From contig CAVXJS010000015.1 of the NCBI GenBank assembly GCA_963762145.1, positions 128,001 to 192,000 on the forward strand: 64,000 nt of DNA, written 5' to 3'. How positions within the stretch are numbered: position 1 is the stretch's first letter; each line of letters opens with the position of its first letter. Of this stretch, positions 1,729 through 34,494 are shown piece after piece. Under the pieces are notes generated by a model. The model was not told where the DNA came from. It saw only the letters and a program-made list of their open reading frames with translations, and did no database searches. The position numbers were made by a program, and so were the translations under genes. The DNA comes from an uncultured Candidatus Rokubacteria bacterium (GTDB lineage Bacteria > Methylomirabilota > Methylomirabilia > Rokubacteriales > CSP1-6).

Positions 1729-2659
1729 GGCGGATCCGCGGATCGATGACGAGATAGGCCAGGTCAACCACCAGGTTGGCGAGGACGTAGATCACCGCGA
1801 AGACGAGCACCGCGCCCATCACGACCGGCAGGTCGCGCTGCCCCACCGCGGCCACCAGCATCCGGCCGAGGCCGGGCCACGCGAAGACCGTCTCGGTGAG
1901 GGGCGCGCCGACGAGGAGATCCGCGATCCCGATGCCGATCACGGTGATCACCGGGATCAGGGCATTGCGCAGGGCGTGCTTGGCGATCACCAGCCATTCG
2001 CCGAGCCCCTTGGCGCGTGCGGTCTGGATGTACTCCTGCCGGATCACCTCGAGCAGGTTCGAGCGGGCCATGCGCGCAATGGTGCCGGTGTGGATGGCGC
2101 CCAGCGTGAACGCGGGCAGGACCAGGTTGGCCCAGGCGCCGTCGCCGTAGCCCGAGACCGGCAGCCATCCGAGCCACACCGCGAAGAGCAGCGAGAGCAT
2201 CATGCCGAGCCAGAACACCGGCGTGGAGATGCCGAGCACCGCCGCGCTCATGAGGAGCTGATCGAGCAGCCGACCCGGCCGCAGCGCGGCCACGATCCCC
2301 ATCGCGAGGCCGACGACGACCGCGATCACGGTGGCGGCCAGGGCCAGGCGCACGGTGGCGGGCAGCCGCTCGGCGATGATCTCCGCGACCGGCCGCTGCT
2401 GGTGATAAGACGTCCCGAGGTCCCCGCGGCCCAACCGCGACATCCACGTGAGGTAGCGCACGTGCACCGGTTGGTCGAGCGCGTAGTCCCGGCGGATCTG
2501 CTGGACCAGCTCCGGATCGGCGCGCTGGCCCAGCATGGCCCGGGCCGGATCGCCCAGGCCGACCGCGGTGAGCGCGAAGACGAGCAGGCTGACGCCCAGC
2601 AGGACTGGGAGGAGGGCCAGGACGCGCTTGGCCGCGGGTTCTAGCAGGTCGGAAAACAT
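1718..2659 (-). CDS. Peptide/nickel ABC transporter permease (DppB/OppB type)
   Basis: GDPARAMLG, GDLGTSY, EYIQTARAKGL, KHALRNAL, ETVFAWPGLG, DPRIR. Confidence 0.92.
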   Translation of the reverse strand: MFSDLLEPAAKRVLALLPVLLGVSLLVFALTAVGLGDPARAMLGQRADPELVQQIRRDYALDQPVHVRYLTWMSRLGRGDLGTSYHQQRPVAEIIAERLPATVRLALAATVIAVVVGLAMGIVAALRPGRLLDQLLMSAAVLGISTPVFWLGMMLSLLFAVWLGWLPVSGYGDGAWANLVLPAFTLGAIHTGTIARMARSNLLEVIRQEYIQTARAKGLGEWLVIAKHALRNALIPVITVIGIGIADLLVGAPLTETVFAWPGLGRMLVAAVGQRDLPVVMGAVLVFAVIYVLANLVVDLAYLVIDPRIRRGG

Positions 2660-2717
2660 TGGGCGGTCAGCCGGCGCGCTGGCGCGCGCTTGCTTGGGCA
2701 GCCGTTCTTTCTTTCAT

Positions 2718-2767
2718 ATGCGAGGGCCCAGACATGGCCCCCGCACTCCCCCAACCGCGGACAACCG
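2718..2767. repeat. REP-like palindromic repeat, family A copy 2 (intergenic)
   Basis: ATGCGAGGGCCCAGACATGGCCCCCGCACTCCCCCAACCGCGGACAACCG; matches copies at 720 and 45861. Confidence 0.85.
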
Positions 2768-2782
2768 GCCGCGGACAATCCG

Positions 2783-4354
2783 TTACTCGATCTTTACTTT
2801 GCGCAGGGGGGCGAGGAACTCGGGCGCGGTGGAGAGGGGGGAGCGCTCGAGGCCTTTCACGGTGGGGCGGATCAGGGCTCGGCTCGCGTAGTGGTAGAGC
2901 GTGATCCACGCCCCGTCGTCGAGCAAGCGCTGCTCGGCACCCTGGTAGACTTTGAAGCGCGCCGGGCCGGCCGGCATCACGTCGGCCTGGTCGAGGAGAC
3001 GGTCGAGCTCCGGGCTGCGATACCGGGAGGTGTTGCCCGCCGCGCCGATGTTCCGCGAGTGAAACAGGACGGTCAGGAAGTTCTCCGGATCCGGATAGTC
3101 GGCGATCCAGCCCTGACGGAACATGGTCACCGCTCCCTCGTCCACCACCTTGAGGTGCGCGGCCCAGTCGAGCCGACGCAGCTCGAGCGTGATCCCCACC
3201 TCCCGGAGCTGCGCCTGCAGCAGCTCGCCGATGCGCTGGTTCAGATCGCTGGTGTTGAAGTGGTAGGTGATGGGCGGCAGGCCCCGGCCCCCCGGGAATC
3301 CCGCCTCGGCGAGAAGCTGGCGGGCGCGGGTCCGATCGAGGCCGGGCGCGGTCACGGCCGGGTTGTAGCCCGGCAGCGCGGGAGGCAGGATGCCCTGGCC
3401 CGCGATCACGCAGCCCTCGAGAAGTCCCTGGACGATGGCGGCCGGGTCGATGGCATGCGCCACGGCCAGGCGCATCCGGCGGTCGTTGAACGGCGGCTTC
3501 TCGACGTTGAAGCGCACCCCGTGGGTGCCCAGGGTCGGCCAGATCGCCACCTGGGCGCGAAGCCCGGGATCGGCCTGCACGGCCCGGCAATGGCCGGTCG
3601 GAATGTCGCTGATGTCGAGGTTACCGGCCTTGTAGTCGTTGAACCGGGTGATCTCGGCCGGGATGATGCGGAACACGACGCGCTCCAGGTGGGGCGCGCC
3701 CCGAAAGTGACCGGGGAAGGCCTCCAGCACGACGCGGTCGTCTCGCCGCCACTCCTTCAAACGGAACGCGCCGGTGCCGACCGGGCGACTCGCGAAGGCC
3801 ATCCCCAGGCGCAGGACCTCCTCACGCGGCACGATGGACGCCGCGTCGTAGGCCATCAGGTGGAGGAACGGGGCGAAGGGCTTCTCGAGGGTCAGCTCGA
3901 CGGTGCGCTCGTCCACCACCCGCACCCCCGAGATCTCGGGCGCCCCGCCCTTGATGAAGGCGGGCGCGCCCACGATCTTCTCGAAGACCCACGGCCGCTT
4001 GCCGCGCGCGGCGCGCTCGAAGGAGAACTTCACGTCGGCCGCCACCAGCGCGCGGCCGTGGTGGAACTTCACGCCGGGCCGCAGCACGAAGGTATAGACG
4101 CGATGATCGGCCGAGACCGTCCAGCGCTCGGCCACGCCCGGCAGGGGCTCGAGCTTCTCGTCCAGCTCCACCAGGGTGTCGAAGATCTGGCGCACGACCG
4201 CGGAGGAGGTCGTGTCGGTGGCCTGGGCCGGATCGAGCGTCGGCGGATCGGAGATGAAGACGCCGCGCAGCGGGCCCACCGGCTTGCCGCTCTGGGCCTC
4301 CGCCGGCCCGGCCGCGAGGAGCAGGCCCAGCAGCAGGACGCGGAGGCCCTTCAC
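2783..4354 (-). CDS. ABC transporter substrate-binding protein, family 5 (DppA/OppA-like)
   Basis: GTG start overlaps the upstream stop (GTGA); signal peptide ending AEAQ; motifs TLDPA, FVLRPGVKFHHG, PVGTGAF, GWIADYPDPENFL. The 1041-aa ORF call is an upstream over-extension. Confidence 0.9.
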   Translation of the reverse strand: MKGLRVLLLGLLLAAGPAEAQSGKPVGPLRGVFISDPPTLDPAQATDTTSSAVVRQIFDTLVELDEKLEPLPGVAERWTVSADHRVYTFVLRPGVKFHHGRALVAADVKFSFERAARGKRPWVFEKIVGAPAFIKGGAPEISGVRVVDERTVELTLEKPFAPFLHLMAYDAASIVPREEVLRLGMAFASRPVGTGAFRLKEWRRDDRVVLEAFPGHFRGAPHLERVVFRIIPAEITRFNDYKAGNLDISDIPTGHCRAVQADPGLRAQVAIWPTLGTHGVRFNVEKPPFNDRRMRLAVAHAIDPAAIVQGLLEGCVIAGQGILPPALPGYNPAVTAPGLDRTRARQLLAEAGFPGGRGLPPITYHFNTSDLNQRIGELLQAQLREVGITLELRRLDWAAHLKVVDEGAVTMFRQGWIADYPDPENFLTVLFHSRNIGAAGNTSRYRSPELDRLLDQADVMPAGPARFKVYQGAEQRLLDDGAWITLYHYASRALIRPTVKGLERSPLSTAPEFLAPLRKVKIE

Positions 4355-5910
4355 CGCTGGGGGGCCGGCGCGGGTGCCGCCGCCGGCGGCGGCGCGTCGA
4401 GCCAGACGCGGTCGAAGCGAGGATTGCCGCTCGGGTGCAGGCGAAGGTTCCGCACCTCCACGCGGCTCGCCGCCCAGTGCAGCCGCACGTAGAGGGGCAC
4501 CCACGGCATCTCCTCGGCCAGCATGGCCTGGGCGCGCACATATAGGCGCTGCCGCTCCGGCCGGAACGACACCTGGCTGGCCCGGATGAGCAGGTCGTCG
4601 AGCGTCCGGTTGCGGTAGAAGGACATGTTCAGCGCCGTCGGCCCCTTGGTCGCCCCTTCGCTGCTGGTCAATGGGTAGAGCAGGAAGTGCGGGTCGCCCG
4701 CCTCCACCCGGGCCTCGAGCAGCGCCATCTGATGCTGACCGGTCCGGGCGACCTGGAGCGCCGCCTCCGGCGCCTCGACCTGGATCGGCACCGTAAAGCC
4801 CGCGTTGGCCAGCGAGGCGCGGATCGCCTCGGCCACCTGCGTCTGGTCCGGGCGCTTGTCGCCGTCGCTGATCAGCAGGCCGGCCGCAGTCCCACGCGGG
4901 AAGCCCGCGTCCGTCAGCAGGCGCTTGGCGTTCGCCGGGTTCGCCTCGAGCACCGGCGAGCCGTCGCGACGCGCCCAGACCCCGAGCGGCAGAAACGAGA
5001 GCAGCGGCACGCCGGCCGGCGCGACGGTGGGGGCGAGCAAGCGCGGATCGAGCGCGGCCGCCACCGCCTGGCGCGCCTTGAGCCGGTTGAAGGGCTCCCG
5101 CTCCGCCTCGAGCGCCAGGTAGCCGATGCGCCAGCTCGGGATCGACTGGGTCCCGACGGTTCGGGACGGGGCGATCTCGGTGAGCAGGACGTCCACCGCC
5201 TGCGCCGCCAGCATCGCCTCGCCGCGGGCGTCCTCGCCGGTCTCCAGGAAGACCAGCCGCGTCGAGCGTGGCGGCCCGCCCCAGTAGGCCGGATTCGCGT
5301 CGAGCACCACCCTGCCCTGGCTCGCCTCGGTGAGCGCGAACGGTCCGGTGCCGACCCACCGCTGCCCCGCGCTGCTCGCCAGCACGATCGAGAACCCCGG
5401 ATGGGCCAGCACCGCGGGCAGCGGCGCGTAGGGCAGGAGCAGGCTGATCTGGACGGTCCGCGCGTCCACTGCCTTGACTTCCTTGACGACCCCGGGCGTC
5501 CCCCGGATCAGACGCGGCGCGATCATGTTGGGCTGGGGCGCATGGACCGCGGTGGGCTGGATGACCCGGTCGAGACTCTCCACCACGTGCTGGGCGGTCA
5601 GCGGGGTGCCGTCGTGAAACCGCACGCCGTCCCGTAGCCGGAAGGTCCACAGGAGGCCGTCGCGCGACACCGACCACTGGGCGGCCAGCCCCGGCTCGAC
5701 ATCGCTGGTGACGTCGCGGTACTGCACCAGGGTGTCGAAGATTTGCCGTGCGATGACGGAAACTGGTCCCTCGAGCGTGGTCGCGGGGTCGAGCGCGGCT
5801 GGCACCGACGGCAGCCCCACGCGGAGGATGCCGCCCTGCGCCCAGGCGCCATCCGCCAGCGTGAGGACGGCGGCGAGCGTGATCGCGATGCGCCCGCATG
5901 CGCTCCACAT
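4351..5910 (-). CDS. ABC transporter substrate-binding protein, family 5 (DppA-like)
   Basis: Signal peptide MWSACGRIAITLAAV...AWAQ; LDPA, PGLAAQWSVS, FRLRDGVRFHDG, VGTGPF. Confidence 0.88.
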   Translation of the reverse strand: MWSACGRIAITLAAVLTLADGAWAQGGILRVGLPSVPAALDPATTLEGPVSVIARQIFDTLVQYRDVTSDVEPGLAAQWSVSRDGLLWTFRLRDGVRFHDGTPLTAQHVVESLDRVIQPTAVHAPQPNMIAPRLIRGTPGVVKEVKAVDARTVQISLLLPYAPLPAVLAHPGFSIVLASSAGQRWVGTGPFALTEASQGRVVLDANPAYWGGPPRSTRLVFLETGEDARGEAMLAAQAVDVLLTEIAPSRTVGTQSIPSWRIGYLALEAEREPFNRLKARQAVAAALDPRLLAPTVAPAGVPLLSFLPLGVWARRDGSPVLEANPANAKRLLTDAGFPRGTAAGLLISDGDKRPDQTQVAEAIRASLANAGFTVPIQVEAPEAALQVARTGQHQMALLEARVEAGDPHFLLYPLTSSEGATKGPTALNMSFYRNRTLDDLLIRASQVSFRPERQRLYVRAQAMLAEEMPWVPLYVRLHWAASRVEVRNLRLHPSGNPRFDRVWLDAPPPAAAPAPAPQR

Positions 5911-6058
5911 GATCGAGTTATACGACGGAATCCGGCCGCTGCGCGATGCGTAGCCACTTTCCGCGCCGCTGATCACCGGGTGGGCTCGCGCGCAGAGCCG
6001 CGCGCCCGTCCGCCGCTCGAAACGCGCGGGAACCGGCGGGATCGGCCGGCGGCGGGCG

Positions 6059-6074
6059 TGGCACCGAACGTGCT
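6059..6074 (+). promoter_or_regulatory. Candidate sigma54 (-24/-12) promoter upstream of arc
   Basis: TGGCAC-CGAAC-GTGCT with exact GG-N10-GC spacing and one mismatch to TGGCAC-N5-TTGCW, followed by an AT-rich stretch. Confidence 0.5.
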
Positions 6075-6226
6075 TTCTTGTTAATCAGAGGAGTCGGGAG
6101 CGCTCCGGAACCGGGTCGGGTGAGCCACGGTTAAAGCGGTGAGAGCGATAGGTGATCGCCGCACCACGAATCGGAGAAAAGGAAATGAAATCAATGGCTC
6201 CCGAGGGCAAAATGAGGCCAATTCGC

Positions 6227-6256
6227 TTGACTTAACGCGAAACGGACTCCTATACT
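6227..6256 (+). promoter_or_regulatory. Sigma70-type promoter of the proteasome operon
   Basis: TTGACT-N18-TATACT, 85 bp upstream of the arc ATG. Confidence 0.7.
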
Positions 6257-6340
6257 GAGTTCACCTTTCGGAGGCTTGGGCGGCGCGCGACGGAGCGCTG
6301 GAAGTGCCCGCTGGTTCACCCGGAAAGGAAATGGGCGAAC

Positions 6341-8173
6341 ATGAAGGAGTTCGACAAGAAGGGCAATCCTAGCCGAGAGCCCGCATCCGAAGGGATGAAA
6401 GGCCTCTCGAAATTCCTCCCCATGACCGACTCTAACTACCGGCGACGCCTCACGGAGTACGAGGTCCAGGTCCAGGACCTCCAGGCCTACGTCCGCTCGC
6501 TCGAGACCGAGACCGGGCGGCTGCGCAAGAAGCTGGAGGACGCGCCGAAGGAGTTCATGATCCTGGAGAACAAGCTGCGCGAGGCCAATCGCCAGCTCGT
6601 CCAGGCGTTCAATCAGAACGAGAAGCTCGTCAACGCGCTCTACGAGGCGCGCGAGCAGATCACCTCGCTGAAGGAAGAGGTCGACAAGCTCTGCGCGCCG
6701 CCCTCGACCTACGGGGTCTACCTCTCGGTCAACGAGGACGGCACCGTCAACATCCTGTCGCAGGGCCGCAAGGTGAAGGTCAACCTGCACCCGTCGATCA
6801 AGGCGGAGGACATCAAGCCCGGTCAGGAGCTGATCCTGAACGAGGGTCTCAACGTGGTGGAGACCGCGGGCTACGAGATCCAGGGCGAGGTCGTGATCCT
6901 GAAGGAGCAGCTCGACGCCGAGCGCGCGATCGTCACCCAGCGGGCGGACGAGGACCGCGTCGGCATCATCGCGGACCCGCTGCGCCAGGTGAAGCTCAAG
7001 ATCGGCGACCACCTGCTCATCGACGCCAAGAGCGGCTACCTGCTCGAGAAGCTGCCCAAGAGCGAGGTCGAGGATCTCTCGCTGGAAGAGGTGCCGGACA
7101 TCTCCTACGAGGACATCGGTGGCCTCGGGACCCAGCTCGAGACGATCAAGGACGCGGTCGAGCTGCCGTACCTCTACTCCGAGTACTACAAGGAGCATCA
7201 CCTCGCCCCGCCGAAGGGCGTGCTGCTCTACGGCCCTCCGGGCTGCGGCAAGACCATGATCGCGAAGGCGGTGGCCAACAACCTCGCCGCGCGGATCTCG
7301 GAGAAGCGCGGCGAGAAGGTGAAGGGCTTCTTCCTCAACATCAAGGGCCCCGAGCTGCTCAACAAGTACGTCGGCGAGACCGAGCGGAAGATCCGCGAGA
7401 TCTTCATCAAGGCCCGCGAGAAGGCGGCCGAGGACGTGCCGGTGGTGGTGTTCTTCGACGAGATGGACGCGCTCTTCCGCACCCGCGGCTCGGGCATCTC
7501 CTCGGACGTGGAGACCACGATCGTGCCGCAGCTCCTGGCCGAGATCGACGGCGTCGAGCACCTGAAGAACGTCATCGTGATCGGCGCCTCCAACCGGCAG
7601 GATCTGATCGACCCCGCCATCCTGCGGCCGGGCCGGCTGGACGTGAAGATCAAGATCGAGCGGCCGGACCAGCTGGGGGCAGCCGACATCTTCAACAAGT
7701 ACATGACCACCGAGCTGCCGATCCACGAGTCGGAGATCCGCGAGAGCGCGGGCGACGCGCAGGCGGCGGTGGACCGGATGATCCAGGCCACCATCGAGGA
7801 GATGTACAGCCTCGAGGAGGAGAACCGCTTCCTGGAAGTGACCTACGCCAACGGGGACAAGGAGGTCCTGTACTTCAAGGACTTCTCCTCGGGGGCCATG
7901 ATCGAGTCGGTGGTGCGGCGGGCCAAGAAGCTGGCCCTGAAGCGCTACATCCAGCTCAGCGAGAAGGGCATCAAGGTCGAGGACCTGCTGAACGCGGTGC
8001 GCGAGGAGTTCAAGGAGAACGAGGATCTGCCCAACACGACCAATCCGGACGACTGGGCCAAGATCGCGGGCAAGAAGGGCGAGCGCATCGTCTACGTGAA
8101 GCCGCTCATGGGTGAGACGAAGGAAAAGCAGCGCGCCGTCGAGCGCGTGATCAATACCGGCCAGTACCTGTAG
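6341..8173 (+). CDS. arc: Proteasome-associated AAA ATPase (ARC/Mpa)
   Basis: N-terminal coiled coil, CAPPSTYG, Walker A GPPGCGKT, Walker [30 protein letters not shown] and C-terminal GQYL proteasome-docking motif. Confidence 0.97.
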
Positions 8174-8178
8174 GCCCT

Positions 8179-8213
8179 GCGGCGGGGGGGAGCGCTGGGC
8201 TCCCCCCCGCCGT
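8179..8213 (+). terminator. GC-rich hairpin between arc and dop (terminator, attenuator or REP-like)
   Basis: GCGGCGGGGGGGAGC-GCTGG-GCTCCCCCCCGCCGT followed by GTGTCTTT. Confidence 0.5.
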
Positions 8214-8257
8214 GTGTCTTTCAACCGCCCAGCGCGATCGAGCATCCGGGGACGTCA

Positions 8258-9757
8258 ATGGCGATTCCGAAAGTAATGGGGATCGAGACCGAGTACGGGA
8301 TCACGGTCAAGAACCAGCCGGACTTCAACCCGATCCTTTCCTCGCTGCTCCTGATCAACTCCTACGAGACCTATCGCTCCTCCCGGATCCGCTGGGACTA
8401 CGAGGCGGAGAGCCCGCTGCGCGACGCGCGCGGCTTCGAGTACATGGAGGACAAGGAGGTCCCGTCGAAGGAGGAGTCGCGCCTCATCAACCTGATCCTC
8501 TCCAACGGCGCACGCTTCTACGTGGATCACGCGCACCCGGAGTACTCCTCCCCGGAGACCACCAACCCGCGCGACTGCGTGATCTGGGACCGGGCGGGCG
8601 AGCGCATCCTGGATCTCTCGCGGACCCGGGCGGAGGCGGTCTCGCCGCCCGAGCAGCGCATCCTGATCTACAAGAACAACACCGACTCCAAGGGCAACTC
8701 CTACGGAACCCACGAGAACTACCTCATGGACCGCAAGGTGCCCTTCGCGCGGATCGTCCAGTACCTGCTCCCCTTCTTCGTGAGCCGCCAGGTCTACACC
8801 GGCGCGGGCAAGGTGGGGGCGGAGAACAACACCGAGTTCTGCGAGTTCCAGATCTCCCAGCGGGCCGACTTCCTGGAGACCGAGGTGGGGCTGGAGACGA
8901 TGCACAGCCGGCCCATCATCAACACCCGGGACGAGCCGCACGCGGATCCCGAGAAGTACCGCCGCCTCCACGTGATCGTGGGCGACGCCAACATGAGCGA
9001 GGTCTCCACCTACCTCAAGTGCGGGACGATGGCGATCGTGCTCAGCATGATCGAGGACGACTTCATCGACCGCGATCTGAGCCTGGACAGCCCGGTGGTC
9101 TCGTACCGGCGCGTCTCCCGCGACCTGGGCTGCCGCGAGACGATGCGGCTCAAGGACGGCCGCAACCTGACCGCGGTCGATCTCCAGCGCGAGTTCCTCG
9201 ACCTGGCCCACCGCTACTACCGCGACCGGGAGCACGAGCCGTGGGTGGAGGACGTGATGGCGCGGTGGGGCTCGGTGCTGGACCGGCTCGCGGTGGATCC
9301 CATGAGCCTCGACCGCGAGCTCGACTGGGTGATCAAGCACCAGCTCATCGAGAACTACCGGGCCAAGCACAGCTGCGAGTGGTCGGACTCGCGGGTGGCC
9401 ATGATCGACCTCCAGTACCACGACATCCGGCCCAGCAAGGGGCTCTACTACAAGCTCGAGGAAGCGGACGCGGTGGAGCGTCTCAGCACCGAGGACGAGG
9501 TGACCAAGGCGATCTACGATCCGCCCAAGGACACCCGGGCCTACTTCCGCGGCATGTGCCTGCAGAAGTACTCCGACGAGGTCGTCTCCGCCTCGTGGGA
9601 CTCGGTGATCTTCGATCTCAAGGAGGGCCCGCTCAAGAAGATCTTCATGCTCGAGCCGCTCCGGGGCACCGAGGCCCACGTGCGCCAGCTCTTCGACGAG
9701 TCGGCCACCGCGGGCGCCCTGCTCAAGAATCTCGGCAAGCCGAGCGGCGACTTCTAG
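8258..9757 (+). CDS. dop: Pup deamidase/depupylase Dop
   Basis: [74 protein letters not shown]. Confidence 0.95.
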   Translation: MAIPKVMGIETEYGITVKNQPDFNPILSSLLLINSYETYRSSRIRWDYEAESPLRDARGFEYMEDKEVPSKEESRLINLILSNGARFYVDHAHPEYSSPETTNPRDCVIWDRAGERILDLSRTRAEAVSPPEQRILIYKNNTDSKGNSYGTHENYLMDRKVPFARIVQYLLPFFVSRQVYTGAGKVGAENNTEFCEFQISQRADFLETEVGLETMHSRPIINTRDEPHADPEKYRRLHVIVGDANMSEVSTYLKCGTMAIVLSMIEDDFIDRDLSLDSPVVSYRRVSRDLGCRETMRLKDGRNLTAVDLQREFLDLAHRYYRDREHEPWVEDVMARWGSVLDRLAVDPMSLDRELDWVIKHQLIENYRAKHSCEWSDSRVAMIDLQYHDIRPSKGLYYKLEEADAVERLSTEDEVTKAIYDPPKDTRAYFRGMCLQKYSDEVVSASWDSVIFDLKEGPLKKIFMLEPLRGTEAHVRQLFDESATAGALLKNLGKPSGDF

Positions 9758-9758
9758 G

Positions 9759-10568
9759 ATGCTCGATCCGGAGCGCTGGAAGCAGGCCTTCTTCGACTAC
9801 TCGACCTCGAGCTTCGCCGAGATCCTGCACCGTGCCGCGCCCCACCTGCTGCCCGGCCGCGCCGAGGGCGGGTCGGACGAGGGGAGCGTGCCCTCGGTGC
9901 CGCACGGCACCACGGTGCTGGCCCTGCGCTACCGCGACGGGGTGATCATGGCGGGCGACCGGCAGGCCAGCGAGGGCTACCAGGTGGCCCATCGCCGCAT
10001 CGAGAAGATCTTCAAGTCCGATGACCTCTCCGGCGTCGGCATCGCGGGCGCGGCCGGGCCCGCCATGGAGATGGCCCGCCTGTTCCAGACCGAGCTCGAG
10101 CACTACGAGAAGGTCGAGGGCGAGAACCTCTCGCTGGACGGCAAGGCCAACAAGCTCGGGCAGATGATCCGCATGAATCTGCCCATGGCGATGCAGGGCC
10201 TCGTGGTGGTGCCGATCTTCGCGGGCTTCGACGAGCGGGCCGGCGTGGGGCGGCTGTTCAAGTACGACGTCACCGGGGGCCGCTACGAGGAGACCGACTA
10301 CTTCGCCCAGGGCTCGGGCGGCAAGGACGCGCGCGACTCGCTGAAGAAGCGCTTCCGGCGCGACATGAACCGTGAGGAGGCGCTGCGAGTCGCCATCGAG
10401 GCGCTGATCGACGCGGCCGACGAGGATCTCGGCACCGGCGGGCCCGACCTGACGCGCGGCATCCTGCCGTCGGTGAAGACCATCACGCGCTCGGGCTTCG
10501 CGGACGCGCCCGAGGACGAGATCCGGCGCCACTGCGAGGCCGTCCTCAATGACCGCAACCGTCTCTAG
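9759..10568 (+). CDS. prcB: 20S proteasome beta subunit with propeptide
   Basis: Propeptide ends PHG|TT (catalytic N-terminal Thr); AGDRQA, ELEHYEKVEG, LDGKANKL, QGSGG, DLGTGGPD. Confidence 0.96.
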   Translation: MLDPERWKQAFFDYSTSSFAEILHRAAPHLLPGRAEGGSDEGSVPSVPHGTTVLALRYRDGVIMAGDRQASEGYQVAHRRIEKIFKSDDLSGVGIAGAAGPAMEMARLFQTELEHYEKVEGENLSLDGKANKLGQMIRMNLPMAMQGLVVVPIFAGFDERAGVGRLFKYDVTGGRYEETDYFAQGSGGKDARDSLKKRFRRDMNREEALRVAIEALIDAADEDLGTGGPDLTRGILPSVKTITRSGFADAPEDEIRRHCEAVLNDRNRL

Positions 10569-10583
10569 CCCGCGGGGACTCTG

Positions 10584-11276
10584 ATGCCGCTGCCCTACTA
10601 CGTATCGCCCGAGCAGATGATGAAGGACAAGGCGGAGTATGCCCGCAAGGGCATCTCCCGCGGCCGGGCCATCGTCACGATCGAGTACCGGGACGGCATC
10701 CTGCTGGTGGCCGAGAATCCGTCGACCCTGCTGCACAAGATCTCGGAGATCTACGACCGCATCGCCTTCGCGGGCGTGGGCAAGTACAACGAGTTCGAGA
10801 ACATGCGGGTGGCCGGGGTGCGGCACGCCGACGTCAAGGGCTACTCCTACAGCCGCGGCGACGTGAGCGCCAAGTCGCTCGCGAACGCCTACTCGCAGGC
10901 CCTCGGCAACATCTTCACCCAGGACATCAAGCCGTTCGAGATCGAGGTGCTGGTGGTGGAGGTGGGCGACGCCAACGGCACCAAGAACGAGATCTACCAC
11001 ATCCTCTACGACGGCACGATCGAGGACGAGAAGAACTACGCCGCGATGGGCGGCCAGTCCGAGGAGATCCGGCGGTACCTGAAGGACAACTTCCAGGAGA
11101 ACCTCGACGTGGCCGCGGCCTTGAAGCTGGGCGTCCGGGCCCTCATGGTCACCCAGAACAAGACCCTCACCGAGCGAGATCTCGAGGTGGCGGTCCTCGA
11201 CCGCACCAAGGAGCGCCGCAAGTTCCGCCGCATCCCCGCCGAAGCCCTCCACCAGCTCCTCACCGAGACCACCTAG
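10584..11276 (+). CDS. prcA: 20S proteasome alpha subunit
   Basis: PYYVSPEQMMKDKAEYARKGISRG, KISEIYDRIAFAGVGKYNEFE, LEVAVLDR. Confidence 0.96.
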   Translation: MPLPYYVSPEQMMKDKAEYARKGISRGRAIVTIEYRDGILLVAENPSTLLHKISEIYDRIAFAGVGKYNEFENMRVAGVRHADVKGYSYSRGDVSAKSLANAYSQALGNIFTQDIKPFEIEVLVVEVGDANGTKNEIYHILYDGTIEDEKNYAAMGGQSEEIRRYLKDNFQENLDVAAALKLGVRALMVTQNKTLTERDLEVAVLDRTKERRKFRRIPAEALHQLLTETT

Positions 11277-11344
11277 CCCGGCAGTTTGAAGCGACGTCGA
11301 CCTGCTTCGTTCGAGCGCCGGCTCCGCCGGCGCAATCCGTCTTT

Positions 11345-11381
11345 GGGGAGGCTCGGAGGGGGCCGCCGAGGCCCCCTTCGA
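11345..11381. repeat. REP-like palindrome between prcA and pafA
   Basis: GGGGAG-GC-TCGGAGGGGGCC-GCCGA-GGCCCCCTTCGA; shares the GGGGGCC/GGCCCCC core with family A. Confidence 0.6.
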
Positions 11382-11427
11382 ATGTCTATTTGCCCGGCGG
11401 CCACTCCCCTGCTACCCTGAGGGTCAC

Positions 11428-12783
11428 ATGAAGCGCCGGATCTTCGGCCTCGAGAACGAGTACGGTCTCACCTGTACCCTGAACGGTCAGCGCCGCCTGT
11501 CGCCCGACAACGTGGCGCGGTACCTCTTCGAGAAGGTGATCCCGGGCGCCCGCAACGCCAACGTCTTCCTCGAGAACGGGGCGCGGCTCTACCTCGACAC
11601 CGGCTTCCACCCCGAGTACGCCACTCCCGAGTGCGACGACATCACGGATCTGGTGATCCACGACAAGGCGGGCGAGCGCATCGTGGAGGACCTGCTGCAC
11701 CAGGCCGAGAAGCGGCTCCGCGAGGACGGCATCTCCGGCCACATCCTGCTCTTCAAGAACAACACCGACTCCGCGGGCAACTCGTACGGCTGCCACGAGA
11801 ACTACCTGGTCAGCCGTGACGTGTCGTTCCAGCGCCTGGCCGAGGGCCTGATCCCGTTCTTCGTGACCCGTCAGATCTTCGCGGGCGCGGGCAAGGTGCT
11901 GCAGACCCCGCGGGGCTTCCACTACTGCCTCTCGCAGCGGGCCCAGCACATCTGCCAGGAGATCTCGGGCGCGACCACCTCGTCCCGGTCCATCATCAAC
12001 ACCCGCGACGAGCCCCACGCCGACGCCGAGAAATACCGCCGCCTGCACGTCATCGTGGGCGACTCCAACATGTCCGAGGTCGCGACCTATCTGAAGGTGG
12101 GCACCACCGCGCTGATCCTGGACATGATCGAGGACGGCCACTTCGACCGGGACTACAGCCTGCAGTCGCCGGTCCAGGCCATCCGGGACATCAGCCACGA
12201 CCCGACGCTGCGCGAGACGATCCGCCTGAAGGACGGGCGGGCCATCACCCCGCTCCAGCTGCAGATGGAGTACCTCGAGCACGCGACCCGCTACGTGCAG
12301 GCCATCGACGCGGACCCGGTCACCCGGGACGTGCTCGCGCGCTGGACCTACGTGATCGAGCAGCTGGCCGACGACCCCATGCAGCTCAATCGTGAGGTCG
12401 ACTGGGTGATCAAGCAGCAGCTCATCCAGGCTTACATGGAGAAGAACCGCCTGTCCTGGCGCGACCCCAAGGTCTCGCTCATGGACCTGCAGTACCACGA
12501 CATCCGGCCCGACAAGGGCCTCTACTTCAGTCTGGTACGCCGCGACCTGGTGGACCGCATCACCGACGATGAGTCCATCGAGCGCGCCAAGCACATGCCC
12601 CCGCAGACCACACGGGCCCGGCTGCGGGGCGAATTCATCCGCCAGGCCAACCTCAAGGGCAAGGACTACCGGGTGGACTGGGTCTATCTCAAGCTCAACG
12701 ATCCGGAGCGCGAGACCATTCTCTGCAAGGACCCATTCCAGAGCCACGACGAGCGCGTCGAGCGACTGATTCGCTCGTTCTAG
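11428..12783 (+). CDS. pafA: Pup-protein ligase PafA
   Basis: [93 protein letters not shown]. Confidence 0.96.
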
Positions 12784-12833
12784 ACGACACCGCTCGCGCG
12801 GGTGCCGGCGAGCGGCGCAGGACCAACCAACCG

Positions 12834-15035
12834 ATGCCTCTCACGCCGCTTTCCTCCGACGTCATGGACACCATCGTCGCCGGGCAGCACGGCGACCCGT
12901 TCGCCGTACTGGGCCCGCACCCTGGAGGCGCCGGCACCGTCGGCGTCCGCGTCTTCCTGCCCGCGGCCCGCGCGGCCTCGGTCGTCACGCCCGACGGCGC
13001 GATCACCCCGCTGCGCCGGGCGCATCCGGGCGGCCTCTGGGAGGGCCCGCTGCCGGGCCGGCGCAGCCTCCCCCTGGCCTACCGCCTCCGCCTCGAGGAC
13101 GATCAAGGACGCGTCACCGAGATCGAGGACCCCTACCGGTTCACGCCCACCCTCAGCGGCTACGATCTGCACCTGCTCGGCGAGGGCACGCACTTCCGCC
13201 TGTTCGAGCGGCTCGGGGCCCACCCCCTTCGCCACGAGGACGTGGACGGCGTGCGCTTCGCGGTGTGGGCGCCCAACGCCCGGCGCGTCAGCGTGGTGGG
13301 CGACTGGAACGGCTGGGACGGGCGGACCCAGCCCATGCGCCTGCACCCGGGCAACGGCATCTGGGAGATCTTCCTGCCCGGGGTACCGCTGGGCGCCCGC
13401 TACAAGTACGAGATCGTCGGGCGGGACGGTGGGCTGCTCGCGCTGAAGTCGGACCCGCTGGCCTTCGCCTTCGAGCCGGACGATCCGCGCACCGCCTCCG
13501 CGGTCGTGGACATCAACGGGTTCGCGTGGGGCGACGCGGAGTGGATGGACGAGCGCAAGCGCCGCAACACGCTCCACCGCCCCATGTCGGTCTACGAGGT
13601 GCACCTGGGCTCGTGGCGGCGCCCCGAGCCCGGCACGCTCCCGAGCTACCGGGAGCTGGCCGAGCAGCTCGCCGACTACGTGAGCGAGATGGGCTTCACC
13701 CACGTCGAGCTCATGCCGATCACCGAGCACCCGTACTACGCCTCCTGGGGCTACCAGACCCTCGGCTACTTCGCGCCCACCCGCCGCTACGGCACCCCCG
13801 CCGACTTCATGGCGTTCGTGGACACGCTCCACCGCCGCGGCATCGGGGTGATCATGGACTGGGTCCCGGCCCACTTCCCCAAGGACGCCCACGGGCTCGC
13901 CTTCTTCGACGGCACCCACCTCTACGAGCACGACGATCCGAACCTGCGCGACCACCCCGACTGGGGCACCCGCGTGTTCAACTACGGCCGCCGAGAGGTC
14001 GCCAACTTCCTGATCGCCAACGCGGTGTTCTGGCTCGAGCGCTACCACATCGACGGCCTGCGCGTGGACGCGGTCGCCTCGATGATCTACCGCGACTACT
14101 CGCGGAAGGCGGGCGAGTGGGTCCCCAACGAGTACGGGGGCCGCGAGAACCTGGAGGCGCTCGCCTTCCTGCGGAAGCTGAACGAGGTGGTCTACGGCGG
14201 CCAGCCCGGCGCGTCGACTATCGCGGAGGAATCGACCGCGTGGCCCCAGGTCTCGCGCCCGGTCTACCTCGGCGGGCTCGGCTTCGGCTTCAAGTGGAAC
14301 ATGGGCTGGATGCACGACATCCTCGACTTCATGCAGAACGAGCCGGTGCACCGGAAGTACCACCACAACCAGCTCACCTTCGGTCTCCTCTACGCGTGGA
14401 CCGAGAACTTCGTGCTGCCGCTCTCCCACGACGAGGTGGTCTACGGCAAGCGCTCCCTCGCCCGCAAGATGCCGGGCGACGACTGGCAGCGCTTCGCGAA
14501 CCTGCGCCTGCTCTACGCGTTCATGTGGGCCTATCCCGGGAAGAAGCTCCTCTTCATGGGCGGCGAGTTCGGCCAGTCCGACGAGTGGAGCCACGACCGC
14601 GCCCTGGACTGGTCGCTGCTCGAGATGGGCCCCTACCACCGCGGGGTCCAGCGGCTCGTGCGAGACCTCAATCACGTCTACCGGAGCGAGCCGGCTCTCT
14701 ACGAGGTCGACTTCGACTCGGCGGGCTTCCAGTGGATGGACTGCAGCGACTGGGAGCAGAGCATCGTGGCGTTCTGCCGCTTCTCCCGCGGCCAGGAGCG
14801 CCTGCTGCTCTGCGCGTGCAACTTCACGCCGGTGGCGCGGCGGGGCTATCGGGTCGGCGTCCCCAGGCCCGGCTTCTACCGCGAGGTCATCAATTCCGAC
14901 GCCTCGGTGTACGGGGGCAGCGACGTCGGCAACGGGGGCGGCGTGGCGAGCGAGCCGACGCCGTGGCACGGGCAGCCGCACTCGGTGGTGCTCACCCTGC
15001 CGCCCCTCGCGGCGGTCTGGCTGATCCCGGCCTGA
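12834..15035 (+). CDS. glgB: 1,4-alpha-glucan branching enzyme
   Basis: [52 protein letters not shown]. Confidence 0.97.
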
Positions 15036-15049
15036 GCCGGCGCCCACCG

Positions 15050-17226
15050 ATGGCCGACGCTCCGCGCACCCGGCCGGGCCGGCCATACCCGCTCGGCGCC
15101 ACCTGGGACGGCGACGGCGTCAACTTCGCCCTCTTCAGCGAGCACGCCACCGCGGTGGCGCTCTGCCTCTTCGACGAGCGCGATCCGGGCAAGGAGCTCC
15201 GCCAGATCCGGCTCGAGGAGCGCACCGATCAGGTCTGGCACACCTACGTTCCGGGCATCCGGCCGGGCGCGCTCTACGCGTACCGGGTGAACGGGTCGTA
15301 CGAGCCCGCTCAGGGGCACCGCTTCAACCCGGCCAAGGCGCTGCTCGATCCGTACGCGAAGGCGATCGCGGGCACGCTCGAGTGGCAGGACGCCTTCCTC
15401 GGCTACCGCATCGGCGACCCGGCGGGGGACGTCACGCCGCACGATCGCGACAGCGGGCCGTACCTGCCCAAGAGCGTGGTGGTGGACGGGACCTTCGACT
15501 GGGAAGGCGACCGGCCGCCGCTCACCCGCTGGTCGCGCACCATCATCTACGAGGTCCACGTCAAAGGCTTCACCCGACTCCATCCCGACGTGCCGCCCGA
15601 GCTTCGCGGCACCTACGCGGGCCTCTCGTGCGACGCGGCGGTGCGGCACCTCACCGAGCTGGGCGTCACCGCGGTCGAGCTGCTGCCCATCCACCACTCG
15701 GTCACCGAGAAGTACCAGGCCGATCGCGGGTTCACGAACTACTGGGGCTACAACTCGATCGGCTTCTTCGCCCCCGACTCGCGCTTCTCCTCCTCGGGCC
15801 AGCGGGGCCAGCAGGTGGACGAGTTCAAGACGATGGTGAAGCGGCTGCACCGGGCGGGCATCGAGGTCATCCTCGACGTGGTGTACAACCACACCGCGGA
15901 GGGCAACCACCTAGGGCCGACGCTCTGCTTCCGCGGCATCGACAACGACGCGTACTATCGCCTCTCGCCCGAGGATCCGCGCTTCTACGTCGACTACACC
16001 GGGACCGGTAACACGCTGAACATGCGGCACCCGCGCACGATCCAGCTCATGATGGACAGCCTGCGCTACTGGGTGCTCGAGATGCACGTGGACGGCTTCC
16101 GCTTCGACCTCGCGGCCGCGCTGGCCCGCGAGCTGCACGACGTGGACCGGCTCTCCGCCTTCTTCGACGTCATCCACCAGGATCCGGTGATCTCGCAGGT
16201 CAAGCTCATCGCCGAGCCGTGGGACTTCGGCGAGGGCGGTTACCAGGTGGGCAACTTCCCGGTGGGCTGGGCGGAGTGGAACGGCAAGTACCGCGACACG
16301 ATCCGCCGCTACTGGAAGGGCGACGAGGGGCAGGTCGCGGAGATGGCCTACCGCCTCACCGGCTCGAGCGATCTCTACGAGATGGGCGGGCGCCGGCCCC
16401 ACGCGAGCGTCAACTTCATCACCGCCCACGACGGCTTCACCCTGGCCGACCTCGTCTCCTACAACGACAAGCACAACCTCGCGAACGGCGAGAACAATCG
16501 GGACGGCACCGACGACAACAGCTCCTGGAACTGCGGCGTCGAGGGTCCCACCGACGACCCCAAGATCGTCGCGCTCCGCGAGCGGCAGGCAGCGCAACTT
16601 CCTGGCCACCCTCTTCCTGTCCCAGGGCATCCCGATGCTGCTGGGCGGCGACGAGATGGGCCGCACCCAGCGCGGCAACAACAACGCCTATTGCCAGGAC
16701 ACCGAGCTGTCGTGGTTCCACTGGCCGCCCACCGAGACCGGGCGGCGCCTCATCGAGTTCACCCAACGCCTCATCCGGCTCAAGAAGGCCAACCCGGTCT
16801 TCCACCGGCGCATGTTCTTCCAGGGCCGTCGGATCCAGGGCTCGGCGGTGAAGGACCTGGCCTGGTTCCGCCCCGACGGCCAGGAGATGACCGACGAGGA
16901 GTGGCAGAACAGCTTGAGCCGCTGCCTCGGGCTCCGGCTGGCCGGCGACGCCATCGAGGAGGTGGACGACCTGGGCGAGCCCATCGTCGGCGACACCTTC
17001 CTGATCCTGCTCAACGCCCACCACGAGCCGGTGCCCTTCGTGCTGCCCGCCCACGCGACGCGCGTGCACCTGGGAGCCCGTGCTCGACACGCGCGACTGG
17101 GACGGCGACGCCGATCGCCCATCCCTCCGCACCGGCGAGCAGTACATGCTCGAGGGCCGCTCCGTCGCGGTCCTGCGCCTGCGGCCACCCACGCGCCCCG
17201 CTCGCGAGCCTGCCCAAGGAGCCTGA
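15050..17226 (+). CDS. glgX: Glycogen debranching enzyme (frameshifts near 16590 and 17070 in this assembly)
   Basis: [57 protein letters not shown]; continues in other frames as [12 protein letters not shown]...GNNNAYCQD and VLDT...LEGRSVAVL to TGA 17224-17226. Confidence 0.92.
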
Positions 17227-18500
<1,274 letters not shown>

Positions 18501-31638: not shown

Positions 31639-33598
31639 ATGGAGCAGAAGATCTACACCTCGTGCACGCTGGACTGCCCGGACGGCTGCGGGATCATCGC
31701 CCACGTGAAGGACGGGCGCGTGGTGAAGCTCGAGGGTCACCCGGATCACGAGTTCACCCAGGGCTATCTGTGCGGCAAGACCTACCGCTTCCCGGAGCGC
31801 GTCTACAGCCCCGAGCGGCAGCTCCATCCCCTCAAGCGCGAGAACGGGCGTCCCGGCGGCGGCTGGGTGCGGATCGGCTGGGACGAGGCGCTCGACCTGG
31901 TGGCGGACAAGATCCGCGGCTACCTGGCCGACCCGGGCCCGCTCTCGATCATGCACTACCAGCGCACCGGGTCCTGGGGCGCCACCAAGCTGCTGAGCCG
32001 GCGCTTCTGGAACCTGCTGGGCGGCGTCACCACCACCAGCGGCTCACTCTGCAGCGGCGCCGCGCGCGCGGGTCAGGCCCTCGACTTCGGCGTGCGCGCG
32101 GGCCACGACCCGTCCGACATGCTGAACAGCCGCCTCGTGCTGCTCTGGGGCCGCAACCCGATGGCCACCAACCTCCACACGGTGCCGATCCTCAAGGAGA
32201 TCCGGAAGCGCGGCGGCCGCGTCATCCTCATCGACCCGGTGCGGAGCGAGTCGGCGAACTTCTGCGACGAGCACGTGCAGCCCCGCGTGGCCTCCGACGC
32301 GGAGCTCGCGATGGCCATGGCCAAGGTCATCCTCGAGGAGGGACTCGAGGACCGCGTCTACCTCGAGCGGCACGCGCACGGCCTGGCCGACTACCGCGCC
32401 CTGCTCGACGCCCGCTCGCTCGGCGAGCTGGCCGCCGCGTGCGAGCTGACCGAAGAGGCGATCCGGAAGCTCGCGCGCGAGTACGCGAGCACCAGGCCCG
32501 CGTCGGTGCTCCTCGGGTGGGGCCTCAACAAGTACCAGCACAGCGCGGAGATCTTCCGCTGCGTGGACGCACTCGGGGCCCTCTGCGGGCACATCGGGGT
32601 GCCCGGCGGCGGCGTCTCGCACGGCTACAACACCCAGCGGCACTTCGACAAGACGGTGGAGGCCGCCGACCGCGCCACGCACCATCGCGCGATCCCCGAG
32701 CCCCTGCTCGGCGCGCGGGCTCCTGGAGGCGCAGAAGCCGCCCATCCGGATGATGTTCGTCAACAGTGGCAACCCGGTGAACCAGTCGCCGAACTCGAAC
32801 AAGGTGGCCCAGGGCCTGGCCGGCCTGGAGTTCGTGGTGGTCGTGGACCAGGTGCTCACCGACACCACCGACTACGCCCACGTGTTCCTCCCCACCACCA
32901 CCTTCCTCGAGGAGGAGGACATGCTGGTGTCGTGGGGGCACAACATCATCGGCGGGGTCAACCGGGTCATCGAGCCGGTGGGCGAGGCGCGCTCCGATCT
33001 CCTGATCTTCCAGCAGCTCGCCGACCGTCTCGGCATCGGCCCCGAGATGGCGGGCGCGCCGCGGGACTGGCTCTCGCGCATCTTCACGCCGCTCACCCGG
33101 CGCGGTGTGAGCATCGACCAGGTCATGGAAGCGCCGGTGCGGTGCCCGGTGGCCCCCATGGTGCCGTTCGCGGATCACGTCTACCCGACCAAGTCGGGCC
33201 GCTTCGAGTTCATCACCCAGCTCAAGCACGAGCCTCGCGTGGTGCCGGACTACCCGCTGACGCTCGTGACCAACTACAGCAAGAAGTGGCTCCTCTCGCA
33301 GATCCTCGAGAAGGAGCACCCGTCCATCGCCTCGATCCGCATCGGCACCGAGACCGCCCAGCAGAACGGCATCGCGAGCGGCGAGCGTGCGATCATCCGC
33401 TCCCCGGTGGGCCACCTGGAAGTCGAGGTGCTGGTGGACGCGCGGATCGGCCGCGGCATGGTCATCATGCCGGTCGGCACCTGGATCAAGCGCGGCGGGG
33501 GCGCCAACGTGCTGACCGAGGACATCATGTCCAACTTCGGCCAGATGGCGGCATACGGCGAGACGCGGGTGCGGCTCGAGCGGGTCGCCGCGGCCTGA
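31639..33598 (+). CDS. Molybdopterin oxidoreductase (DMSO reductase superfamily, bis-MGD, 4Fe-4S); frameshift near 32710
   Basis: CTLDCPDGC...LC N-terminal Fe-S motif, WDEALD, WGRNP, IDP; continues in another frame as NPVNQSPN, TDTTDYAHVFLPTTTFLE and a C-terminal dinucleotide-binding domain. Confidence 0.88.
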
Positions 33599-33651
33599 GC
33601 GGGAACCGGGCGCGGTCCCGGCAGGTTAAAGTCGGCCAGGGAGGAACACCC

Positions 33652-34494
33652 ATGGCCAATCCGCTCAGCCGTCGCGAGGTTCTGAAGTACGGCGCCTTCA
33701 CCACCGTCGGAGGCGTGCTCACGCCGGGCGTCGTGCTCGCCCAGGCTATCACCACCGATAGCAAGGGCATCATCGCCCGGGACATCCCGCTCACGTCGAG
33801 CGGCGCCACCATCCCCGCCTACGACGCCCGCCCCGAGGCGGCCGGCCGCTACCCCATCGTGGTCGTCATCTCCGGCTTCACCGGCAACTCCGACCAGAAC
33901 AAGGACGTGGTCCGCCGCTTCGCCCAGGCCGGCTACTACGCGATCGCCCCCGAGCTGTACTCTCGCGAGGGCGGCATGCAGGGCAAGAACTTCCAGGAGA
34001 TGGGCCAGATCGCGGGCCGCGTCACGCGGGCCCAGTACCTGAGCGACATCCGGGCCGCCGCCGACTACGCGAAGCAGCAGTCCTGGGCGCGGGCCGACCG
34101 CCTCGGGGTCACCGGCTTCTGCGGGGGCGGCGCCCTCACCCTGCATACCGCGGCCGAGTATCCCGGGGTGACCGCGGCGGTGCCGTGGTACGGGCAGGTC
34201 AAGCGGGTCTACTCCGACGCGCCCGGCGTGGACGCCTTCAGCCTCGTGGGCCGGATCAAGGCGCCCGTGCTGGGCCTCTACGGCGACGCCGACCCGGGCA
34301 TCCCCTCCGCCGACGTCCGCAGCTTCGAGGCCGAGCTGCGGAAGGCGGGCAACGCGAACGTCGAGTTCATCCTGTACCCCGACGCGCCGCACGCGTTCTT
34401 CTCGGACGATCGGCCGCAGGTGTACAAGAAGGAAGCCAGCGAGGACGCCTGGAAGCGCTGCCTGGCGTTCTTCGAGAAGCACCTGAAGGCCTGA
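33652..34494 (+). CDS. Dienelactone hydrolase family protein with Tat signal peptide
   Basis: GGAGG RBS; SRREVLK twin-arginine motif; nucleophile motif GFCGGG; YGDAD and YPDAPHAF. Confidence 0.9.
   Translation: MANPLSRREVLKYGAFTTVGGVLTPGVVLAQAITTDSKGIIARDIPLTSSGATIPAYDARPEAAGRYPIVVVISGFTGNSDQNKDVVRRFAQAGYYAIAPELYSREGGMQGKNFQEMGQIAGRVTRAQYLSDIRAAADYAKQQSWARADRLGVTGFCGGGALTLHTAAEYPGVTAAVPWYGQVKRVYSDAPGVDAFSLVGRIKAPVLGLYGDADPGIPSADVRSFEAELRKAGNANVEFILYPDAPHAFFSDDRPQVYKKEASEDAWKRCLAFFEKHLKA

Follow-up and report, generated by a model that had tools for sequence, protein, structure and literature searches.

The window analyzed here, a 64-kb stretch of DNA, derives from the genome of an uncultured soil bacterium of the Rokubacteria (Rokuibacteriota; Methylomirabilota in GTDB). 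It contains five forward-strand genes of a Pup-proteasome system (PPS): arc/mpa, encoding a proteasomal AAA+ ATPase (6341..8173, 610 aa); dop, a depupylase/deamidase (8258..9757, 499 aa); prcB and prcA, the 20S proteasome beta (9759..10568, 269 aa) and alpha (10584..11276, 230 aa) subunits; and pafA, a Pup-protein ligase (11428..12783, 451 aa). These open reading frames agree with the intergenic gaps of 84, 1, 15, and 151 nt listed in a first-pass annotation of this DNA. At the usual place of pup, the dop stop and prcB start form a TAG-G-ATG junction (9755..9761, forward strand). A sigma-70-like promoter candidate lies upstream of arc (6227..6256, forward strand; TTGACT, 18-nt spacer, TATACT), with 10 of 12 positions matching the consensus. 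Judged by consensus match only, it was the sole promoter-like site in 5900-13000, where shuffled sequences averaged 0.5. Two G+C-rich hairpins are present on the same strand. The first, of 16 pairs, lies 3' of arc (8178..8214) and is a possible terminator or attenuator between arc and dop. The second, of 12 pairs, occupies the 151-nt spacer between prcA and pafA (11353..11381).

The M. tuberculosis locus reads mpa-dop-pup-prcB-prcA-pafA. The Rokubacterial locus shares its five families and their order, as well as, for ARC, an N-terminal coiled coil, a double OB domain, and a C-terminal GQYL, the loop insertion of Dop, and the propeptide and Thr1 of PrcB. The Rokubacterial arc is also set off from dop by a hairpin-bearing spacer, like actinobacterial arc, which a review describes as forming its own operon upstream of dop (PMC3511204). 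Unlike actinobacterial systems, the interval between dop and prcB is a single nucleotide with no pup directly upstream of prcB, pafA is followed by glgB with no pafBC, and the host bears kdsB (43315-44046; TIGR00466, 182 bits, cut-off 155). The genome also carries lgt, and its Rokubacterial identity bears out the earlier description of a non-actinobacterial host with kdsB. The same review calls the gene order of pupylation loci rigidly conserved (PMC3511204).

The first-pass annotation had described arc-dop-prcB-prcA-pafA as intact, and Pfam domains together with NCBIfam equivalog cut-offs, passed by all five proteins, place them in the canonical Pup-proteasome families. ARC scored 755 bits on TIGR03689 (cut-off 505) and contains the AAA domain and both proteasomal-ATPase OB domains (Prot_ATP_ID_OB_N and Prot_ATP_ID_OB_C). 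It aligned to M. tuberculosis Mpa chains (7px9) with 678 bits, beginning at residue 52 and running through the terminal GQYL, so the coiled-coil segment and C-terminus said to be retained are indeed conserved. Dop scored 599 bits on Pfam Pup_ligase and 626 bits on TIGR03688 (cut-off 492), and just 425 bits on the PafA model, under its cut-off of 551. It is thus distinct from PafA, which also lacks the additional stretch that follows the N-terminal GxExEYG of Dop at the position of the Dop loop. PafA itself scored 547 bits on Pfam Pup_ligase and 630 bits on TIGR03686 (cut-off 551), consistent with a Pup ligase, and matched solved PafA and Dop chains with about 410–415 bits. PrcB (TIGR03690, 302 bits, cut-off 192) and PrcA (TIGR03691, 323 bits, cut-off 139) both carry the Pfam Proteasome domain and are bacterial-type 20S subunits. 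PrcB has a propeptide of ~50 aa before the processing site (HG|TT).

The pup gene is not part of this locus. None of the 117 stop-to-stop frames of 25–200 aa on either strand of 5600-13000 matched Pfam Pup at E≤1, and no frame within these coordinates ends in G[EQ]. Three of the 117 gave unrelated Pfam matches (E 0.13–0.16). Across the window, one of 1226 frames of at least 20 aa has a G[EQ] C-terminus; it lies antisense to an MFS gene (46239-46436, reverse strand). None of the 36 window frames of at least 25 aa ending in E or Q matched the NCBIfam Pup model, on which a positive control, an actinobacterial Pup, reached 73.6 bits, and the 151-nt prcA-pafA spacer contains no Pup-like frame. The earlier observation that the operon lacks a Pup frame therefore stands, and it extends to the 64-kb window. 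A pup hidden within the locus, whether it shares sequence with dop or prcB in a different frame or is so short or odd that it went unlisted, would be conceivable in DNA of such high G+C content, which generates many long overlapping frames (e.g. 8212-9945, forward strand). However, a local Pup HMM was run at maximum sensitivity over all stop-to-stop frames of at least 15 aa on both strands (26,909 frames from the window and 80 related loci), and the control alone matched at E≤10. With the empty Pfam and C-terminus scans, this makes a hidden pup very improbable.

We compared the locus with those of the 80 best of 594 Dop relatives (Dop 81–99% identical), drawn from separate species-representative assemblies. 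Of these, 47 are titled Rokubacteria or Rokuibacteriota and 19 Methylomirabilota or Methylomirabilia, while 4 are given as "uncultured bacterium" and the remaining 10 go under different bin names. The order arc-dop-prcB-prcA-pafA was kept in every sufficiently long locus. In one (L019), pafA and prcA at first appeared to be lost; this was rejected, as both genes are split by frameshifts, an assembly error. The spacing between dop and prcB had a median of 7 nt (79 loci) and was at least 150 nt in only two (L076 and L078), neither of which holds a Pup-like frame in the spacer. Translations of the larger spacers (dop-prcB in eight loci, arc-dop in two) were inspected by eye and revealed nothing Pup-like.

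The synteny comparison upholds the first-pass annotation's view that the junction is native. That annotation had also considered a collapsed pup of ~200 bp at the dop/prcB junction. We assign such an artefact, whether a collapse or a deletion, a negligible probability: the same abutting junction without pup recurs in 79 further loci, whose separate assemblies stem from different projects and assemblers, which refutes it. The recurrence of TAGGATG had been offered as a further sign of a native junction. The three sites in the window (9755, 31635, and 62094) are each at a gene junction, but their number shows no excess over chance (shuffles averaged 2.6, and 45 of 100 reached three), so the recurrence adds little. 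The real argument is conservation across 80 assemblies.

The surroundings of the related loci likewise yielded no recognizable tag. The Pup HMM was applied to 1.25 Mb, comprising these loci and as much as 10 kb of flanking DNA, and found no match. Frames ending in G[EQ] numbered 59 in 1.18 Mb. None of them combined coding-like composition with conservation, and none matched NCBIfam, in which controls were positive and which may hold no UBact model. Clustering of 1028 ORFs from the loci recovered bactofilin-like and RuvA/B-like proteins (named by eye from sequence starts), SBP_bac_5 proteins (Pfam), and small membrane proteins, with no conserved small acidic ORF among them.

UBact offers a second point of comparison. 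This Pup-like tag, reportedly described by Lehmann et al. in 2017, is said to accompany homologues of Mpa, Dop/PafA, and the proteasome in diderm bacteria, with NC10 among the hosts. The Rokubacterial locus is like UBact systems of Gram-negative phyla in having these homologues. The first-pass annotation gives R[ST]G[EQ] as the C-terminus of UBact. With this motif, widened to [RK][ST]G[EQ], we found no such frame that was coding-like or conserved between loci in the window and the 80 loci, and no small ORF of the UBact type stands beside the genes for Mpa, Dop/PafA, and the proteasome.

Purifying selection acts on each of the five genes. Relative to the window sequence, the median dN/dS was 0.11 for PafA (n=69), 0.17 for ARC (n=71), 0.17 for PrcA (n=75), 0.18 for Dop (n=80), and 0.28 for PrcB (n=78). 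PafA is therefore the most constrained protein of the locus, while conservation is lowest in PrcB and in the N-terminus of ARC ahead of residue 52. Retention of a ligase and deligase this tightly implies a substrate tag. These values weigh on the suggestion that there is no tag at all, with a Pup-independent proteasome and with PafA and Dop kept for, e.g., another gamma-glutamyl ligation or an amidase activity. Only the failure to find a tag speaks for it. The constraint on PafA speaks against it, as do the scores of PafA and Dop, which exceed equivalog cut-offs on models derived from enzymes of pupylation. A ligase/deligase pair beside a coiled-coil ARC would also be hard to explain without a protein tag, and we consider this option quite improbable.

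Pupylation has been described mainly for Actinobacteria and Nitrospirae. Loci of the latter (Leptospirillum, Nitrospiria) share with the Rokubacterial one a non-actinobacterial host. Such hosts are thought to have acquired the system by horizontal transfer (PMC3511204; PMC7947786). Sporadic Dop/PafA homologues have been reported in NC10, Armatimonadetes, Verrucomicrobia, and Nitrospinae, and Rokubacteria go unmentioned in the passages on these hosts. Canonical 66-aa Pups ending in GGQ or GGE do exist in non-actinobacterial hosts (e.g. P0422, named Nitrospiria) and are still detectable, as a Nitrospiria-named Pup scored 65.9 bits on TIGR03687.

We searched protein databases for a Rokubacterial Pup. 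An exhaustive profile search yielded 2898 representatives at E≤1e-3. In this search and in three word-indexed ones, all matches listed (best 120 or 150 of each) were of actinobacterial or Nitrospiria type. No Pup named for Rokubacteria or Methylomirabilota appeared among 360 matches from the three word-indexed searches (best 120 of 1837–6783 each), which counts, as weak evidence, against an unlinked canonical Pup. An initial ESM Atlas search with an actinobacterial Pup as query returned actinobacterial clusters only. The Atlas does hold a cluster of 82 members, 66 aa in length and 100% PF05639. The phylum is given for 14 of these members, with Candidatus Methylomirabilota the most frequent. 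Features (0.92) and structure both led to the cluster. Its label may refer to NC10-type Methylomirabilales and not to Rokubacteria; a Methylomirabilota-type label is also carried by 19 of the 80 loci of the window's own lineage. This cluster is the only positive lead to a Pup for Rokubacteria.

The same searches bear on whether the tag was replaced by a divergent modifier encoded outside the locus, one missed by Pup and UBact models and still handled by PafA, Dop, and ARC. The 1.25 Mb around Rokubacterial operons without a Pup-like frame, the lack of a Rokubacteria-named Pup among the 360 best-listed matches, and the comparatively low conservation of PrcB and of the ARC N-terminus would fit such a replacement. 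Against it, Dop shares 57% identity with an actinobacterial counterpart, PafA matches C. glutamicum PafA (4b0t, 4bjr) with about 410 bits, and ARC has a well-conserved version of the coiled-coil segment of Mpa. Conservation of these tag-handling parts argues for a conventional partner, and a PF05639 cluster labeled Methylomirabilota exists. We regard replacement as unlikely, and the balance leans toward relocation on account of ARC coiled-coil conservation, the constraint on PafA, and the Atlas cluster.

Our data suggest that Rokubacteria probably possess a functional canonical Pup-proteasome system whose pup gene is encoded outside the locus. We favor an unlinked pup because of the canonical machinery, the lineage-wide architecture, purifying selection, the Atlas cluster, and the detectability of non-actinobacterial Pups. 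Counted against it are the lack of a demonstrably Rokubacterial Pup among the protein matches listed and of any pup in the flanks, up to 10 kb from the operon, of the 80 loci; an unlinked pup would be unusual. By family membership, a Pup of ~60–70 aa would be encoded elsewhere in the genome, and PafA would join it, by way of the C-terminal glutamate, to lysines on protein targets. Dop would remove Pup and would also deamidate a Gln-ended tag. The ARC coiled coil would capture pupylated proteins for unfolding and delivery to the PrcAB 20S core, on which ARC is predicted to dock via its GQYL tail. Loss of pup from the dop-prcB interval would be old, being common to the whole Rokubacterial species set sampled. 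It would have brought dop and prcB into near contact, an arrangement suggestive of translational coupling, and expression of the tag may be independent of its enzymes.

In an abundant uncultured soil lineage, strong selection thus maintains the full complement of enzymes and proteasome subunits, and in every species sampled the tag gene is gone from the locus. No prior account of a pup-less Rokubacterial PPS locus was found in the literature searched. If pup has merely moved, regulation of the tag is separated from that of its enzymes, and well-documented Pup-proteasome systems extend to Rokubacteria. If Rokubacterial genomes hold no Pup, the locus would indicate a protein modifier not yet known. 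We doubt that Rokubacteria lack a recognizable Pup or UBact and that their strongly conserved PafA, Dop, and ARC handle a novel tag encoded elsewhere, either unrelated or highly divergent; if true, this tag would bring to three the ubiquitin-like modifiers of bacteria that feed a proteasome. The converse case is known from Corynebacterium and Micrococcus, whose pupylation loci lack a proteasome and whose remaining parts stay functional (PMC3511204, PMC8223512). There, prcBA was lost and pup kept, whereas in Rokubacteria pup is gone from the locus and prcBA is kept.

The operon at 6341-12783 comprises five co-directional genes separated by spacers of 84, 1, 15, and 151 nt, reproducing the gene set and spacing described in the first-pass annotation. 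All lie on the + strand: arc (6341-8173), encoding the proteasomal ATPase; dop (8258-9757), the depupylase/deamidase; prcB (9759-10568) and prcA (10584-11276), the 20S beta and alpha subunits; and pafA (11428-12783), the Pup ligase. Between the dop TAG (9755-9757) and the prcB ATG stands a single G, again as first described. All 5/5 proteins exceeded the curated NCBIfam equivalog threshold of their own family: ARC with 755 bits (cut-off 505), Dop with 626 (492), PrcB with 302 (192), PrcA with 323 (139), and PafA with 630 (551). Pfam matches comprised AAA and both proteasomal-ATPase OB domains for ARC, Pup_ligase for Dop (599 bits) and PafA (547 bits), and Proteasome for PrcB and PrcA. Since the Dop-like protein did not reach the NCBIfam PafA cut-off, nor the PafA-like protein that of Dop, these paralogues are clearly assigned. 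ARC aligned with M. tuberculosis Mpa (7px9; 678 bits) from residue 52 onwards, coiled-coil segment included, as far as its C-terminal residue, and its translation ends in GQYL; both features had been listed as retained. PrcB carries a propeptide of ~50 residues ahead of HG|TT, Dop has an additional segment past its N-terminal GIETEYG that is absent from PafA, and PafA scored 408-415 bits against PafA and Dop chains of solved structure.

Passages in reviews place pup directly upstream of prcB, usually following dop, and arc mostly upstream in its own operon (PMC3511204). The Rokubacterial locus differs from this order in the absence of pup between dop and prcB, which leaves a 1-nt spacer. None of 117 stop-to-stop frames (25-200 aa, both strands, 5600-13000) matched Pfam Pup at E<=1, bearing out the lack of a Pup-like frame originally noted for the operon. 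Likewise, 0 of 36 window frames of at least 25 aa with a terminal E or Q matched NCBIfam Pup, for which Nonomuraea Pup served as positive control (73.6 bits). A G[EQ] C-terminus occurred in just 1 of 1226 window frames of at least 20 aa, and that frame (46239-46436, -) is antisense to an MFS transporter gene. Recurrence of TAGGATG had been taken as a sign of a native junction; its three copies in the window, each at a gene junction, are at chance level (mean expectation 2.6) and therefore carry little weight.

Related loci were obtained by scanning the window Dop against 185,579 species-representative genomes. This gave 594 relatives, of which the best 80 were kept (Dop identity 81-99%; 99% for locus L001). 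Their deposited labels were Rokubacteria/Rokuibacteriota (47), Methylomirabilota/Methylomirabilia (19), "uncultured bacterium" (4), and other bin names (10). These last ten (L002, L003, L004, L007, L017, L018, L022, L025, L068, and L080), whose bin names include Nitrosotalea, Nitrosocosmicus, Verrucomicrobiia, Binatia, Limnocylindria, and Eisenbacteria, have Dops 84-98% identical to that of the window, unchanged gene order, and near-identical DNA; they are likely mis-binned Rokubacterial contigs. The window itself has a G+C content of 64-73%, numerous ABC and TRAP transporter genes, kdsB (TIGR00466, 182 versus cut-off 155), and lgt. Its gene content and G+C fit a diderm, non-actinobacterial host, and this earlier assignment is upheld by kdsB, lgt, and the mainly Rokubacteria-labelled relatives.

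The arc-dop-prcB-prcA-pafA order is conserved across the lineage, being present in every sufficiently long locus of the 80 (tblastn map); where pafA seemed to be missing, the contig had ended or, in L019, the genes were frameshifted. The dop-prcB spacing had a median of 7 nt (79 loci) and was at least 150 nt only in L076 (297 nt) and L078 (239 nt). One negative spacing was an artefact, most likely from L015, where the dop alignment ends at residue 461. Because this pup-less order is lineage-wide and no tag was found in the related loci, an assembly artefact is excluded as the cause of the missing pup, its probability being negligible. The synteny of relatives thus confirms the native dop-prcB junction over a collapsed pup gene, and the original observation is strengthened.

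Three-frame translation of the larger spacers in related loci revealed nothing Pup-like. A local HMM built from 35 Pups (set A1) was run at maximum sensitivity on all 26,909 frames of at least 15 aa in the window, the control locus, and the 80 related loci; at E<=10 it matched the control alone. Together with the Pfam result, this makes a tag concealed inside the locus a very remote prospect. Clustering of 1028 locus ORFs yielded no conserved small acidic neighbour. In none of the species sampled does the tag gene lie within ~10 kb of the operon. Frames of at least 25 aa ending in G[EQ] numbered 59 in 1,183,302 bases of loci; they were rejected as tag candidates on composition, which marks them as other genes read antisense or out of frame, and 0 of 59 matched in NCBIfam (Nitrospiria-named Pup control, 65.9 bits).

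Small ORFs ending in GGAGGE or GGGGE were present in three of the 80 loci, ~5.5 kb upstream of dop (L069:4370-4729, L070:4423-4581, and L073:4385-4546, all on the - strand). They have a hydrophobic, signal-like N-terminus and no family match, that of L069 adjoins a response-regulator-like ORF, and they are probably unrelated to pupylation. Apparent frameshifts in dop (L015:10001-11531) and in prcA and pafA (L019:12300-14500), both from "MFD" assemblies, more likely reflect indels made in assembly than pseudogenes.

All five genes are under purifying selection. Median pairwise dN/dS against the window (Nei-Gojobori) was 0.11 for pafA (69 loci), 0.17 for arc (71) and prcA (75), 0.18 for dop (80), and 0.28 for prcB (78), values that are overestimates if anything because extreme GC3 constrains synonymous sites. 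The tag ligase gene pafA is the most constrained of the locus, which suggests that the ligase still has a substrate; repurposing of the enzymes in a cell with no tag appears highly improbable.

Three natural Pups were used to query protein collections. Among the best 120 of 4887, of 1837, and of 6783 matches, those that were named were actinobacterial or Nitrospiria and none was named Rokubacteria, a result that says nothing on absence. An exhaustive Pup profile search, equally silent on absence, gave 2898 representatives, the best 150 of which were canonical Pups. The single positive lead to the tag came from the ESM Atlas, where a Nitrospiria-type Pup (P0422) recovered, via features (0.92) and via structure, a cluster with 82 members, 66 aa long and 100% PF05639. 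Where a phylum is recorded (14 of 82 members), Candidatus Methylomirabilota is the most frequent. Rokuibacteriota and Methylomirabilota are separate phyla at NCBI; nonetheless, 19 of the 80 loci of this lineage bear the Methylomirabilota label, so the cluster may be Rokubacterial or NC10-type. Among the matches listed for the third protein-collection query (6783 in all), one Pup subtype (P0441, P0442, P0409, P0454, and P0493) is rich in the residues Ala, Pro, Arg, and Glu, a composition that would suit a high-G+C host. The 98-aa "Pup" predictions P0253 and P0268-P0386, a large family of metagenomic origin, consist of a 66-aa Pup ending in VQRGGE and a weakly conserved 32-residue upstream extension, probably an over-called start.

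We consider it probable that the operon belongs to a canonical Pup-proteasome system and that pup left it in an ancestor of the Rokubacteria sampled. Its departure would have left dop and prcB abutting. The tag, if it exists as we suppose, would be regulated separately from its enzymes and joined to targets by pupylation chemistry, and ARC would deliver the tagged proteins to the 20S core. The first-pass annotation, whose interpretation is supported in part, had allowed for a tag either relocated or replaced; the evidence leans to simple relocation, and a divergent, unrecognised tag in place of Pup seems unlikely. Our search of openly accessible literature found no published Rokubacterial Pup-proteasome system or pup-less locus. 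The locus represents a new variant of that of a known system.

A candidate sigma-70-like site (6227-6256) and two strong G+C-rich hairpins on the + strand, one 3' of arc (8178-8214) and one in the prcA-pafA spacer (11353-11381), were predicted from consensus matches only. These long hairpins flank the dop-prcB-prcA block, which suggests three transcription units or attenuation points inside the locus.

In the actinobacterial locus of Nonomuraea gerenzanensis (L081:6001-9464), pup (8093-8302) lies ~580 nt from dop, across a gap holding an antisense membrane-protein-like ORF, and is followed by a minus-strand ORF, DinB-like by eye, where prcB would be expected. As this pup has no adjoining prcB, even Actinobacteria do not always keep pup linked to prcB. 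At 11.85 Mb the record is chromosome-sized, and it is listed as a plasmid.

Elsewhere in the window, a second GH13-type gene (15038-17497, +; CBM_48 and alpha-amylase catalytic domain) lies 3' of glgB. Its frame is open to 17497 and its codon-position G+C signal changes phase near 16,550, suggesting a frameshift or two overlapping genes. A 951-aa ORF (31639-34494, +; GC3 0.79) combines N-terminal molybdopterin-oxidoreductase domains with a C-terminal dienelactone hydrolase domain, which probably reflects separate genes read through in this high-G+C DNA, not a genuine fusion.
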